DNA of 6,492 nt from a virus (taxonomy: Duplodnaviria > Heunggongvirae > Uroviricota > Caudoviricetes), in the IMG/VR virus record IMGVR_UViG_3300029080_000025, positions 1 to 6,492 of that record; one strand, written 5' to 3'. The translations under genes and the position numbers were made by a program. Positions 1-6,098 of this stretch are shown piece after piece. Below the pieces are notes generated by a model, which worked only from the letters and a program-made list of their open reading frames with translations, was not told where the DNA came from and searched no databases. Within the stretch, counting starts at the first letter, position 1. Every line of letters starts with the position of its first letter.

Positions 1-296
1 AGAATCTCTATCTGGATAATCTGGAGGCCACAGGGCTGTATCAGGTGCCGTTGTCATCAGTACAACCGGGTGATGTGCTGCTGTGCTGTTTTGGTTCATC
101 GGTGCCGAATCATGCCGCTATTTACTGTGGTGACGGCGAGCTGCTGCACCATATTCCTGAACAACTGAGCAAACGAGAGAGGTATACCGACAAATGGCAG
201 CGACGCACACACTCCCTCTGGCGTCACCGGGCATGGCACGCATCTGCCTTTACGGGGATTTACAACGATTTGGCCGGCGCATCGACCTTCGTGTGA
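1..296 (+). CDS. K: Phage tail tip assembly protein K, C-terminal part (5' end lies upstream of the window)
   Basis: The frame is open from the window edge to the TGA at 294-296. The translation (...VQPGDVLLCCFGSSVPNHAAIYCGDGELLHHIPEQLSKRERYTDKWQRRTHSLWRHRAWHASAFTGIYNDLAGASTFV) matches my recollection of the C-terminus of lambda gpK. Its position directly upstream of and overlapping I is as in lambda. Confidence 0.85.
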   Translation, partial: NLYLDNLEATGLYQVPLSSVQPGDVLLCCFGSSVPNHAAIYCGDGELLHHIPEQLSKRERYTDKWQRRTHSLWRHRAWHASAFTGIYNDLAGASTFV

Positions 297-865
297 AAAC
301 GGGGGCTGAAGCCATCCGGGCACTGGCCACACAGCTCCCGGCGTTTCGTCAGAAACTGAGCGACGGCTGGTATCAGGTACGGATTGCCGGGCAGGATGTC
401 AGCACGTCCGGATTAACGGCGCAGTTACATGAGACTCTGCCTGATGGCGCTGTGATTCATATTGTTCCCAGAGTCGCCGGGGCCAAGTCAGGTGGTGTAT
501 TCCAGATTGTCCTGGGAGCAGCCGCCATTGCCGGATCATTCTTTACCGCCGGAGCCACCCTTGCAGCATGGGGGGCAGCCATTGGGGCCGGTGGTATGAC
601 CGGCATCCTGTTTTCTCTCGGTGCCAGTATGGTGCTTGGCGGTGTGGCCCAGATGCTGGCCCCTAAACCCAGAACTCCCCGCACACAAACAACGGATAAC
701 GGTAAGCAGAACACGTATTTCTCGTCACTGGACAACATGGTTGCCCAGGGCAATGTTCTGCCTGTTCTGTACGGTGAAATGCGCGTGGGGTCACGTGTTG
801 TCTCTCAGGAGATCAGCACGGCAGACGAGGGGGACGGTGGTCAGGTTGTGGTGATTGGTCGCTGA
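194..865 (+). CDS. I: Phage tail tip assembly protein I
   Basis: 223-aa ORF from ATG to TGA (863-865). The translation (MAATHTLPLASPGMARICLYGDLQRFGRRIDLRVKTGAEAIRALATQL...GDGGQVVVIGR) is near-identical, as recalled, to lambda gpI, which has the same length. It overlaps the K 3' end out of frame, as in lambda. Confidence 0.9.
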   Translation: MAATHTLPLASPGMARICLYGDLQRFGRRIDLRVKTGAEAIRALATQLPAFRQKLSDGWYQVRIAGQDVSTSGLTAQLHETLPDGAVIHIVPRVAGAKSGGVFQIVLGAAAIAGSFFTAGATLAAWGAAIGAGGMTGILFSLGASMVLGGVAQMLAPKPRTPRTQTTDNGKQNTYFSSLDNMVAQGNVLPVLYGEMRVGSRVVSQEISTADEGDGGQVVVIGR

Positions 866-1570: not shown

Positions 1571-4500
1571 ATGGGTAAAGGTGGCACTAAGGGGCATACC
1601 CCGCGCGAAGCGAAGGACAACCTGAAATCATCCCAGCTGCTGAGCGTGATAGACGCCATCAGTGAAGGGCCGATTGAAGGTCCGGTGGACGGATTAAAAA
1701 GTGTGCTGCTGAACAGTACGCCGGTGCTGGACAGTGAGGGGAATACCAATATCTCCGGTGTCACGGTGGTGTTCCGGGCAGGTGAGCAGGAGCAGACACC
1801 GCCGGAGGGATTTGAATCCTCCGGTTCAGAAACCGTTATCGGTGCAGAATTAAAATATGACAATCCGCTCACCCGGACCATCACGTCGGCAAACATCGAC
1901 CGTCTGCGCCTGACCTTCGGTGTGCAGGCACTGGTGGAAACCACTTCAAAGGGGGACCGGAATCCGTCGGAAGTTCGCCTGCTGGTTCAGATACAACGTA
2001 ATGGTGGCTGGGTGACGGAAAAAGACATCACCATTAAGGGCAAAACCACCTCACAGTATCTGGCCTCGGTGGTGGTGGATAATCTGCCGCCGCGACCGTT
2101 CAGTATCAGGATGCGCAGGATGACGCCGGACAGCACCACAGACCAGTTGCAGAACAAAACGCTCTGGTCGTCATACACCGAAATTATCGATGTGAAACAG
2201 TGCTACCCGAACACGGCACTGGTCGGCGTGCAGGTGGACTCTGAGCAGTTCGGCAGCCAGCAGGTGAGCCGTAATTATCATCTGCGCGGGCGCATTCTGC
2301 AGGTGCCGTCGAACTATAACCCGCAAACACGGCAATACAGCGGTATCTGGGACGGAACGTTCAGGCCAGCGTACAGCGACAACATGGCCTGGTGTCTGTG
2401 GGACATGCTGACCCACCCGCGCTACGGCATGGGGAAACGTCTTGGTGCGGCGGATGTTGATAAATGGGCGTTGTATGCCATCGGTCGGTACTGCGACCAG
2501 TCGGTACCGGATGGCTCTGGCGGCACGGAGCCGCGCATCACCTGTAATGCGTACCTGACCACACAGCGCAAGGCGTGGGATGTGCTCAGTGATTTCTGCT
2601 CGGCGATGCGCTGTATGCCGGTATGGAACGGGCAGACGCTGACGTTCGTGCAGGACCGGCCATCGGATAAGGTGTGGACCTATAACCGCAGTAATGTGGT
2701 GATGCCGGATGATGGCGCGCCGTTCCGCTACAGCTTCAGCGCCCTGAAGGACCGCCATAATGCCGTTGAGGTGAACTGGATTGACCCGGACAACGGCTGG
2801 GAGACGGCAACAGAGCTTGTGGAGGACACGCAGGCCATTGCCCGTTACGGTCGTAACGTCACGAAGATGGATGCCTTTGGCTGTACCAGCCGGGGGCAGG
2901 CACACCGAGCCGGGCTGTGGCTGATTAAAACAGAACTGCTGGAAACGCAGACCGTGGATTTCAGCGTGGGTGCAGAAGGGCTTCGCCATGTGCCGGGAGA
3001 CGTCATTGAAATCTGCGATGATGACTATGCGGGTATCAGCATCGGTGGTCGCGTGCTGGCGGTGAACAGCCAGACCCGGACGCTGACGCTCGACCGTGAA
3101 ATCACGCTGCCAGCCTCCGGCACCACACTGATAAGCCTGGTCGACGGGACGGGGAGTCCGGTCAGCGTGGTGGTCCAGTCCGTCACCGACGGCGTGCAGG
3201 TGAAAGTGAGCCGGGTTCCTGACGGCGTTGCCGGATACAGCGTGTGGGGGCTGAAGCTGCCGACGCTGCGCCAGCGCCTGTTCCGCTGCGTGAGTATCCG
3301 TGAGAACGACGACGGCACGTACGCTGTCACTGCCGTGCAGCATGTGCCTGAAAAAGAGGCTATCGTGGATAACGGGGCGCACTTTGACGGCGACCAGAGC
3401 GGCACGGTGAATGGTGTCACGCCGCCAGCAGTGCAGCACCTGACCGCAGAAGTCTCCGCAGACAGCGGGGAGTATCAGGTGCTGGCGCGCTGGGACACGC
3501 CGAAGGTGGTGAAGGGGGTGAGCTTTATGCTTCGCCTGACCGTGGCAGCGGACGACGGCAGTGAGCGGTTGGTCAGCACGGCCCGGACGACGGAAACCAC
3601 ATACCGCTTCACGCAACTGGCGCCAGGGAACTACAGGCTGACAGTCCGGGCGGTAAATGCGTGGGGACAGCAGGGCGACCCGGCGTCGGTATCGTTCAGG
3701 ATTGCCGCACCGGCAGCGCCGTCACAGATTGAGCTGACGCCGGGCTATTTTCAGATAACCGCCACGCCGCATCTTGCCGTTTATGACCCGACGGTACAGT
3801 TTGAGTTCTGGTTTTCGGAAAAGCGGATTACCGATATCAGGCAGGTTGAAACCACAGCCCGCTATCTTGGCACGGGGATGTACTGGATAGCCGCCAGTAT
3901 CAATATCAAACCGGGCCATGATTATTACTTTTATATCCGCAGCGTGAACACCGTTGGCAAATCGGCATTCGTGGAGGCTGTCGGTCAGGCGAGCGATGAT
4001 GCGGAAGGTTACCTGGATTTTTTCAAAGGCCAGATAACCGAATCCCATCTCGGCAAGGAGCTGCTGGAAAAAGTCGAGCTGACGGAGGATAACGCCAGCA
4101 AACTGGAGGAGTTTTCGAAAGAGTGGCAGGACGCCAACGATAAGTGGAATGCCATGTGGGGCGTCAAAATTGAGCAGACCAAAGACGGCAAACATTATGT
4201 CGCGGGTATTGGCCTCAGCATGGAGGACACGGAAGAAGGCAAGCTGAGCCAGTTTCTGGTTGCCGCTAACCGTATCGCGTTTATTGACCCGGCAAACGGG
4301 AATGAAACGCCGATGTTTGTGGCGCAGGGCAATCAGATATTTATGAACGACGTGTTCCTGAAGCGTCTGACGGCCCCGACCATTACCAGTGGTGGAAATC
4401 CACCGGCATTTTCCCTGACACCGGACGGGCGGCTGACGGCGAAAAACGCTGATATCAGCGGTAACGTGAATGCGAACTCCGGGACGCTCAACAATGTCAC

Positions 4501-4984
4501 GATAAGTGAGAACTGTACGATTAAGGGCATGCTGGAGGCGACCCAGGTCAGAGGGGATTTCGTTAAAGCTGTATCAAAAGCCTTCCCGAAAAAAGTCGGT
4601 ACGTGGGGTAACACGGAAACGCCAGACGGGACGGTTACAGTCACCATCAGCGATGATCATAACTTTGACCGTCAGATTATTATCCCGCCCATTATCTTTA
4701 ACGGTATAGCGTATACCGATCCGGGAAGTGGTAATAACCCGGGAGGTACAAGGTACACGGGTTATGGATTTGAAGTTCGCAAAAACGGCGTATTAATCGC
4801 ATCCAGAGAAACTAAAGGGGCCATTCCCGGTAGTTACAGTGCGGTTATTGATATGCCGAGTGGGCGAGGTAGCGTCACTCTGGAGTTTAAGATTTACCAG
4901 AAAGGCAATCAGGGGGCAGGCAATATCACCGACTGTACGGTGATTGTGACCAAAAAAGCGGCTTCCGGCATCAGTATCCGTTGA
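1571..4984 (+). CDS. J: Phage host specificity protein J (central tail fibre / tail tip protein)
   Basis: 1137-aa ORF. The N-terminal and central regions ([54 protein letters not shown]...; ...[39 protein letters not shown]...) closely match my recollection of lambda gpJ (1132 aa), including the fibronectin-III-like middle region. The position downstream of K and I is as in lambda. Confidence 0.95.
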
Positions 4985-5005
4985 AATATTTATAACCCTA
5001 ATAAC

Positions 5006-5031
5006 GGGCGCCAGAAATGGCGCCTTTTTTA
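5006..5031 (+). terminator. Rho-independent terminator downstream of J (tJ-like)
   Basis: GC stem ggcgcc (5007-5012) / ggcgcc (5019-5024) with loop agaaat, followed by tttttt (5025-5030). It lies 22 nt after the J stop codon. Confidence 0.6.
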
Positions 5032-5045
5032 TTTGTGGAGTGAGT

Positions 5046-6098
5046 ATGGCAGTACAGATTTCAGGTGTACTGAAAGATGGTGCAGGTAAGCCGATACAAA
5101 ACTGCACCATTCAGCTAAAGGCCAGACGTAACAGCACCACGGTGGTGGTGAACACAGTGGCCTCAGAAAACCCGGATGAAGCCGGGCGTTACACAATGGA
5201 CGTTGAGTACGGTCAGTACAGCGTCATTCTGTTGGTGGAGGGATTTCCGCCGTCACATGCCGGGACCATCACCGTGTATGAAGATTCTCAGCCGGGTACG
5301 CTGAATGATTTTCTCGGTGCCATGACGGAGGAGGATGCCCGGCCGGAGGCACTGCGCCGTTTTGAACAGATGGTGGAAGAGGCAGCGCGTCACGCTGAGG
5401 AGGCGAAGAAGAATGCCGGAGAGGCAGAGACGTCAGCGAGGAATGCGGGTATATCAGTCGGCCAGGCGGAAAAGAGTGCAGTAAATGCTGACACTTCAGC
5501 AGGGGAGGCATCGGAGTCAGCCCGGCAGGCGGCAGAAAGTGCAGCCTCAGCAAAGCAGTCAGAGGATGCGTCCTCGTCCTCGGCTTCTGCGGCCGCTCAA
5601 AAAGCCAGTGAGTCATCACAAAGTGCAGCAGAAGCTGAATTGTCAAGAAAGACGGCAGAAAGTGCAGCCGGTAATGCATCCAGGGATGCAACGACCGCAG
5701 CAGAAAAAGCCCGGGAGTCAGCAGAAAGCGCACAGTCAGCGGAACAAAGCAGGATAGCGGCGGAAGAGGCCGTAAACCGAATCCCCACCGTGGTGGGACC
5801 TCCCGGGCCAAAGGGGGAACAGGGGCCCGCTGGCCCTCAGGGGCCGAAGGGAGACCCGGGCGAGACACAAATCCGTTTTCGTCTGGGGCCGATGAGCATT
5901 ATTGAGACAAACAGCTATGGCTGGTTCCCGGATACAGATGGTGCGCTCATCACCGGACTGACCTTTCTTGACCCCAAAGATGCCACACAGGTTCAGGGGG
6001 TGTTTCAGCATTTGCAGGTCAGATTTGGTGACGGGCCGTGGCAGGATGTTAAGGGGCTGGATGAAGTGGGCAGTGATACAGGCAGAACAGGAGAATGA
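5046..6098 (+). CDS. stf: Side tail fibre protein (lambda Stf-like N-terminus, Ala/Ser/Glu-rich shaft, collagen-like Gly-X-Y segment, short distinct C-terminal domain)
   Basis: ORF ending at TGA 6096-6098. I prefer ATG 5046 (GGAG at 5037-5040, 5-nt spacing) over the in-frame GTG at 5040 because MAVQISGVLKDGAGKPIQNCTIQLKARRNSTTVVVNTVASENPDEAGRY... then matches the recalled lambda Stf N-terminus (MAVKISGVLKDG...). It is much shorter (350 aa) than lambda Stf (774 aa). Confidence 0.85.
   Translation: MAVQISGVLKDGAGKPIQNCTIQLKARRNSTTVVVNTVASENPDEAGRYTMDVEYGQYSVILLVEGFPPSHAGTITVYEDSQPGTLNDFLGAMTEEDARPEALRRFEQMVEEAARHAEEAKKNAGEAETSARNAGISVGQAEKSAVNADTSAGEASESARQAAESAASAKQSEDASSSSASAAAQKASESSQSAAEAELSRKTAESAAGNASRDATTAAEKARESAESAQSAEQSRIAAEEAVNRIPTVVGPPGPKGEQGPAGPQGPKGDPGETQIRFRLGPMSIIETNSYGWFPDTDGALITGLTFLDPKDATQVQGVFQHLQVRFGDGPWQDVKGLDEVGSDTGRTGE
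5370..5790 (+). repeat. Low-complexity Ala/Ser/Glu-rich coding repeats within stf (imperfect tandem AESA-type units)
   Basis: Recurring nucleotide motifs gcagaaagtgcag / gcagaaagcgcac / gcggaaaagagtgcag encode repeated AESAA-like peptide units (EAARHAEEAKKNAGEAETSARNAG...SESARQAAESAASAKQSEDASSSSASAAAQKASESSQSAAEAELSRKTAESAAGNAS...). Boundaries are approximate. Confidence 0.6.
5796..5864 (+). repeat. Collagen-like Gly-X-Y triplet repeat within stf
   Basis: The in-frame codons read GPP GPK GEQ GPA GPQ GPK GDP GE, i.e. seven consecutive G-X-Y triplets plus a trailing Gly-Glu, on a GC-rich stretch (gggccaaagggggaacaggggcccgctggccctcaggggccgaagggagacccgggc). Confidence 0.8.

Follow-up and report, generated by a model that had tools for sequence, protein, structure and literature searches.

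Phage 434-class receptor-binding tail on a lambda-like tip attachment protein J in a lambdoid prophage sequence

We analyzed the gene for the tip attachment protein J in a 6492-base stretch of viral DNA (IMG/VR record IMGVR_UViG_3300029080_000025; hereafter the window, meaning the whole stretch), which represents the tail-tip region of a lambdoid prophage. The protein follows lambda J closely up to residue ~990 and then changes abruptly into another version of the C-terminal receptor-binding domain, which sequence comparison places in the allele class of phage 434 (h434). A 434-class mosaic J, with OmpC rather than LamB as the receptor by analogy with phage 434, is the best explanation overall and, in our assessment, a highly probable one. 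The feature is real but ordinary: it is the known and very common h434 type, and phage 434 itself shows this mosaic pattern. Lambda genetics has made use of the h434 host range for decades.

The window J was aligned by MAFFT with the J proteins of lambda (NC_001416), phage 434 (OL657226), and Stx2a_WGPS6 (AP012539). Identity to lambda J was 94.4% over residues 1–990 and 35.3% over residues 991–1137 (54 of 153 columns matching, with 17 gap columns). The corresponding values were 95.5% and 95.9% for 434 J, the latter over a gap-free alignment, and 71.6% and 97.3% for Stx2a_WGPS6 J. The fall from ~94% to ~35% identity to lambda at one point is far beyond chance. At the nucleotide level, the megablast match to lambda covered window positions 1571–4538 at 92.9% identity, ended there, and restarted at 5028 in the side tail fiber gene (stf). 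Identity to lambda in 45-nucleotide windows was 76% at 4492–4536 and 49% or lower from 4537 on, whereas identity to 434 was 84–100% and flat across the junction. The breakpoint is at approximately nucleotide 4537 (residue ~990). The G+C content was 0.60–0.65 in mid-J versus 0.47–0.48 at 4500–4950.

An earlier note, written from the letters of this DNA, had described J as a close homologue of lambda gpJ from the N-terminus through the center and had proposed that the last ~150 residues diverge from lambda J; the peptide quoted there is exactly J residues 991–1137 (translation of window positions 4499–4984). Both statements agree with the identities above, and the comparison with lambda J, proposed there as a check, returned 35.3% in this part, against the more than 90% that a tail of the lambda kind would show. 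The boundary, which the note called approximate, is the part that needs correction: the break exists, but the start given as 4500 should lie ~37 nucleotides further right, at ~4537.

A smaller irregularity was observed just upstream of the breakpoint. At window positions 4402–4491 (J residues ~944–973), nucleotide identity to both 434 and lambda dipped to 80–84%, and residues in this part (e.g., ISGN) were closer to the Stx2a_WGPS6 and Escherichia albertii versions than to 434, which suggests an extra small mosaic patch.

To place the divergent tail among known versions, the C-terminal end of J (163 residues) was searched by tblastn against 50,697 phage records. Identity was bimodal, with 74 records at 90% or more, 169 below 60%, and none between. 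The former group included phage 434, lambda h434 imm21, 2B8, Evi, mEp332, mEp460, ev243, and many Stx1a-, Stx2a-, and Stx2c-converting phages, and the latter contained lambda, HK630, other Stx phages, and others. This bimodality, together with the gap-free identity of 95.9% to 434 J over residues 991–1137, places the receptor-binding domain of the window J in the allele class of phage 434 (h434). The nearest entries in a large protein collection (98–99% identical) were named E. albertii, followed by many E. coli and Shigella entries at 92–97%, names that make E. albertii or E. coli the likely source of the window. Prophage J genes of E. coli O55:H7 (CB9615, RM12579, and others) matched the 445-bp segment at window positions 4540–4984 with 100% nucleotide identity. 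Of 5426 complete E. coli genomes, 2092 (about 40%) carried a 434-type tail, with 90–100% identity within the class; many genomes contain several prophage J genes, with up to 7 locations in one genome. The J bodies that carry this tail include two that are 95% (434) and 72% (Stx2a_WGPS6) identical to that of the window. The distant body in Stx2a_WGPS6 (71.6%) shows that the last ~147 residues are exchanged among lambdoid phages as a module that is independent of the J body.

A scan of genome contigs with the tail gave three loci, none identical, in E. coli, Escherichia sp. E1V33, and a contig of a 'Collinsella' metagenome-assembled genome. The last of these, JAGZNZ010000056.1 (1350 bases), was binned as 'Collinsella sp.' and encodes this Escherichia-type J tail at 95% identity; its presence in that bin is almost certainly due to contamination during binning.

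The divergent tail nevertheless belongs to the same domain family as that of lambda. It matched Pfam PF12421 (Ig_GpJ_C) at 89.6 bits (gathering cutoff, 26.2; E = 2.5e-25) over profile positions 1–134 of 135. The structure of the C-terminal region, another check proposed in the earlier note, was predicted for residues 960–1137 as an AlphaFold2 monomer (41 aligned sequences), and the model was all-beta with a mean predicted local distance difference test score (pLDDT) of 84. The four highest-ranking PDB structures in a Foldseek comparison were 8xck, 9wca, 9wcb, and 8xcj (E, 2e-16 to 9e-16; template modeling (TM) score normalized on the query, 0.70). Two of these are the lambda gpJ domain in its closed (8xck) and LamB-bound (8xcj) forms, and the others are the 'A8 gpJ 713' domain, again in the closed form (9wca) and in complex with OmpC of E. 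coli EDL933 (9wcb). On the basis of the Pfam and Foldseek matches, the tail shares the family and the immunoglobulin (Ig)-like fold of the lambda domain, so that the two differ in allele class rather than in the kind of domain. An unrelated, non-homologous C-terminal domain was ruled out by the same matches.

J as a whole scored 2271.9 bits against NCBIfam NF049904 (lambda_TipJ; cutoff, 1950), covering residues 1–1137. This score, the domain order (Table 1), and the gene position all fit, and J is a member of the lambda-type tip attachment protein family. Its lambda-like part (residues 1 to ~990) comprises hub domains, FNIII domains, a helical shaft, and a beta-prism fiber, in the terms used for the lambda structure (PMC11101478). 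No record of the exact 1137-residue protein was found by exact look-up; its tail is on record. Overlapping minus-strand open reading frames (ORFs) at 4333–5110 were rejected as genes, being mechanical ORFs without support inside the well-supported J.

The receptor assignment starts from phage 434. Lambda in which J was replaced by 434 J binds OmpC, the receptor of 434, and specificity is determined by the C-terminal part of J (PMC3509688; PMC11101478). In the hybrid phage lambda h434 imm21 (OM418627), the switch from lambda to 434 lies inside J at record positions 17619–17637 (residues ~706–711), and to the right of this crossover all of the 264 informative sites to just past J were of the 434 type, except one matching neither parent. 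Since this hybrid is 434-like from the crossover through the end of J, the h434 host-range allele, as read from the alignment, contains exactly this tail module. Furthermore, the solved complex of A8 gpJ with OmpC (9wcb; PMC11338833) shows that direct binding to OmpC is within the reach of a J domain with this fold. The earlier note had argued that a swapped C-terminal domain would imply a receptor other than LamB, and the 96% identity of the tail to 434 J, with its reported OmpC binding, supports this. What was called a swap is a change of allele class within a homologous domain of the same fold, and the type obtained is the classical, common h434 type.

Several points weigh against OmpC as the receptor or against its transfer to this allele. 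According to the annotation, the 434-derived segment of lambda h434 imm21 also holds lom, stf, and the fiber chaperone gene, and therefore the hybrid by itself does not tell whether J or Stf binds OmpC. The A8 domain is 40.5% identical to that of the window and 41.7% identical to that of lambda, and the lambda, A8, and 434 domains therefore represent three roughly equidistant classes. Because A8 is no closer to the window than lambda is, the A8–OmpC structure does not show the binding mode of the 434 type, and the OmpC assignment rests on the 96% identity to 434, not on likeness to A8. For this exact allele in its own host, OmpC binding is what we infer as most likely from that identity. Six of the 147 tail positions differ between the window and 434, some of them in variable segments. 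A handful of substitutions can be enough to shift the receptor use of J: phage 21, which is natively LamB-dependent, acquires OmpC through one J mutation and OmpF at a later stage (PMC11336670), and the OmpC-targeting J variants A8 and 1A2 differ in specificity across the OmpC alleles tested (PMC11338833). There is thus a small probability that the range of this allele differs from that of 434 on K-12. A literature search found no experimental receptor for mEp332, PhiR68_2, HannyBb, or IdasGreatGrand, phages with this tail, and a 2026 receptor-prediction preprint covered Drexlerviridae-type GpJ, lambdoid tails being absent from it.

The mechanism that we propose for the 434-class J follows that of lambda. 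On binding of lambda to LamB, the bottom of the domain, whose four loops L1–L4 are inserted into LamB, spreads and the top closes; the change travels up through the beta-prism fiber and then the helical shaft until the tube opens (PMC11101478). By analogy, three copies of the window J domain would form the tip of the central fiber, and its distal loops would attach to a porin trimer, most probably that of OmpC and not that of LamB. Binding to the porin would then open the tail tip and start DNA ejection, and phage or tail particles with this J would adsorb independently of LamB.

The distribution of conserved and variable residues can be set against this scheme. The motifs DDHxFDRQ, NG, DMPxGxG, and KKxxxGIS are kept in all classes and alternate with four variable segments at residues ~1004–1015, ~1046–1058, ~1081–1086, and ~1112–1121, and all indels relative to lambda fall in those four segments. 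The order of strands in the model would put the conserved motifs at the proximal end and the variable segments at the distal end, where the latter would correspond to the receptor-facing L1–L4. Polymorphism within the 434 class was mostly located in or beside L1, L2, and L4 (residues 1004, 1008, 1009, 1019, 1049, 1050, 1108–1110, and 1115). The exceptions were residues 1097 and 1099 in the conserved DMPxGxG loop, which is proximal by topology, and variation in L3 was limited to single-sequence variants at 1082 and 1085. The window carries T1049 and Y1109, minority alleles that E. albertii also has, in addition to D1019, S1097, R1099, I1108, Q1110, and G1115, and the combination T1049, S1097, R1099, I1108, Y1109, Q1110, and G1115 is common to E. 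albertii and E. coli O55:H7 prophages.

This polymorphism bears on the alternative that survives best, namely that a 434-class domain has been retuned by few substitutions to another porin of its own host (OmpF, LamB, or an OmpC-like porin) or to particular OmpC alleles. The six tail differences from 434 include class-polymorphic sites (T1049, R1099, I1108/Y1109/Q1110, and G1115), the closest protein entries are from E. albertii and not K-12, and the effects of single J mutations in phage 21 (PMC11336670) and the discrimination among OmpC alleles by the A8 and 1A2 chimeras (PMC11338833) show what such changes can do. However, every substitution is an allele already circulating within the class, the 445-bp segment is unchanged in the O55:H7 prophages, and the class is 90–100% conserved across 2092 E. 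coli genomes; this tight conservation argues for one conserved target, and we regard retuning as unlikely. It is similarly doubtful that the combination of loop residues sets the OmpC allele range, or selects another porin, unlike 434 on K-12. If it did, micro-variation within the h434 class would be a host-range code and not neutral polymorphism.

Two further alternatives fare worse. The tail could be a drifted lambda-type domain that still binds LamB, its divergence being neutral, and the retention of the lambda Pfam family, fold, and structural motifs agrees with this. Drift would be gradual, yet the loss of identity to lambda is abrupt, occurring at a single point with three indels; moreover, the tail is 96% identical to phage 434, whose J reportedly gives OmpC and not LamB use, and the phage records are bimodal without intermediates, so that this explanation is very improbable. 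Hardly credible, finally, is an assembly artifact in the form of a chimeric contig of two prophage J genes: although a run of 12 N (971–982) corresponds to only 4 bases in relatives, marking the record as not clean finished sequence, and the multi-copy J genes offer material for a chimera, the lambda-like body is joined to this tail across the whole gene in finished 434, 2B8, and other genomes, independent sodC-bearing contigs (L008 and L011) are ~96% identical to the window from 608 to at least 5033, the reading frame runs unbroken through the junction, and identity to 434 stays level across it.

For annotation and host-range prediction, particles of this prophage, with their 434-class J, should be scored as OmpC-dependent, not LamB-dependent; the label 'lambda-like J' would mislead. 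The relevance of the finding is limited to these two uses, and it opens no new question. OmpC-targeting J tails have already been used in engineered delivery particles (PMC11338833).

Table 1. Features of the window and Pfam domains of J
Feature	Position	Strand	Basis or remark
K (K'), 3' part	45–296		gene upstream of I
Gene I	194–865		ORF list and Pfam
sodC, Cu/Zn superoxide dismutase	908–1437	minus	between I and J
J, tail tip attachment/central tail fiber protein	1571–4984 (including stop)	plus	1137 residues
Lambda-like part of J, residues 1 to ~990	1571–4537	plus	identity to lambda
h434-type receptor-binding module, residues ~990–1137 (assigned by comparison)	4538–4981	plus	identity, Pfam, fold
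Ig-like receptor-binding domain proper, residues 1001–1136	4571–4978	plus	Pfam PF12421
Terminator-like hairpin	5006–5025 (with T-run, 5006–5035)	plus	directly after J
Side tail fiber gene (stf-like)	5046–6098	plus	Pfam, sequence reading
Small fiber-chaperone-like gene, 89 residues	6100–6369		counterpart of the 434 'tail fiber assembly chaperone'
FNIII-A_GpJ	J residues 86–207		Pfam
Phage-tail_3	J residues 330–496		Pfam
Ig_J	J residues 610–714		Pfam
Ig_J_second	J residues 716–818		Pfam
Phage_Tail_Tip	J residues 845–972		Pfam
Ig_GpJ_C	J residues 1001–1136		Pfam

The genomic context of J is summarized in Table 1. The gene order K-I-J-stf is syntenic with that in lambda and 434. Among phage records, Escherichia phages 2B8, 434, and lambda h434 imm21 gave the best full-length DNA matches, at ~93.5–93.8% identity across 88% of the window; what they leave unmatched is an insert carrying sodC.

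The sodC product scored 175 bits against the NCBIfam equivalog NF007628 (cutoff, 165), a periplasmic Cu/Zn superoxide dismutase, and the G+C content of the insert was low (~0.39–0.45). At the megablast level, the insert was absent from all of the 5426 complete E. coli genomes. The gene was only 65–69% identical at the nucleotide level to sodC of Fels-1, Gifsy-2, and two Stx2a phages. Copies 90–99% identical to it occur in six IMG/VR contigs and one ENA metagenome contig, and the gene seems to be a separate allele of the prophage sodC 'moron' already known. The sodC–J junction was found in six IMG/VR contigs at 90–98% identity, none of them identical, and the I-sodC-J junction was also found on a metagenome contig (L014). 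Protein I is recorded on four short contigs. The run of 12 N lies inside sodC, where 6–7 related contigs read ATGA. As the run does not preserve length, the mechanical sodC ORF ends in the wrong frame ('PIHLLLWGVGAQDWHAE'), and the protein appears to be intact once the 4 bases are restored.

Downstream of J, a pattern scan detected a hairpin of 8 pairs, of which 6 are G-C, followed by TTTTTATTTG, and the 434 record annotates a terminator at the matching place (L001, 5861–5887). The gene lom, encoding an Ail/Lom outer-membrane protein, was absent between J and stf (window positions 4985–5045), whereas lambda, 434, and most of the E. coli matches have it there. In the comparison with 434, the alignment jumped from L001 position 5887, at the terminator, to 6556, just before stf, with a 6-base overlap, and megablast joined window positions 5028–5854 to 434 stf at L001 6556–7381, skipping lom. 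The lom cassette is cleanly absent between two terminator regions.

The stf-like gene starts with the ATG at 5046, giving MAVQISGVLKDG. Pfam matches of its product were phage_tail_N (E = 1e-68), a collagen repeat, and Phage_fiber_C (E = 1.2e-34), and the protein has a region rich in alanine and serine, a short Gly-X-Y stretch resembling collagen, and the Phage_fiber_C domain. It is short, with ~350 residues versus 437 in 434, and its alignment to 434 skips ~240 nucleotides of stf. No record of the Stf protein was found by exact look-up. The product of the adjacent 89-residue gene also matched Phage_fiber_C (E = 1.3e-34).

Among known systems, phage 434 is the closest to the window. Its J (UMO75286.1, OL657226) likewise has 1137 residues, shares 95.5% identity overall and the K-I-J order, and is followed by a terminator in both. 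Of the 51 substitutions that distinguish the two J proteins, 6 lie in the tail, and the window differs from 434 in having sodC between I and J, in lacking lom between J and stf, and in its shorter stf. Stx and other lambdoid prophages of O157:H7, O55:H7, and E. albertii have tails 93–100% identical to that of the window (97.3% in Stx2a_WGPS6), with 97% reached by several Stx and other lambdoid phages, and some such prophages carry a far more divergent J body. Phage 21 was rejected as a close relative of the tail; its DNA match stops at approximately window position 4593, and its native receptor is LamB (PMC11336670).

The lambda gpJ domain (8XCK and 8XCJ) shares with the window domain the family PF12421 and the Ig-like fold (Foldseek E = 2e-16; TM, 0.70), and the trigger mechanism is presumably common to lambda gpJ and the window J. 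The window domain differs from it in sequence (35.3% identity), with two insertions (2 and 6 residues) and one deletion (6 residues), all within the variable segments, and the receptor of lambda is LamB. A8 gpJ (9WCA and 9WCB), a chimera of engineered lambda J with a natural OmpC-binding tail (PMC11338833), has the same fold and reported OmpC binding, and was the best PDB sequence match to the last 291 residues of the window J (E = 5.8e-119), largely via the shared fiber part. Its domain, 40.5% identical to that of the window, belongs to a third allele class, and its contacts with OmpC are not transferable residue by residue to the 434-class domain.

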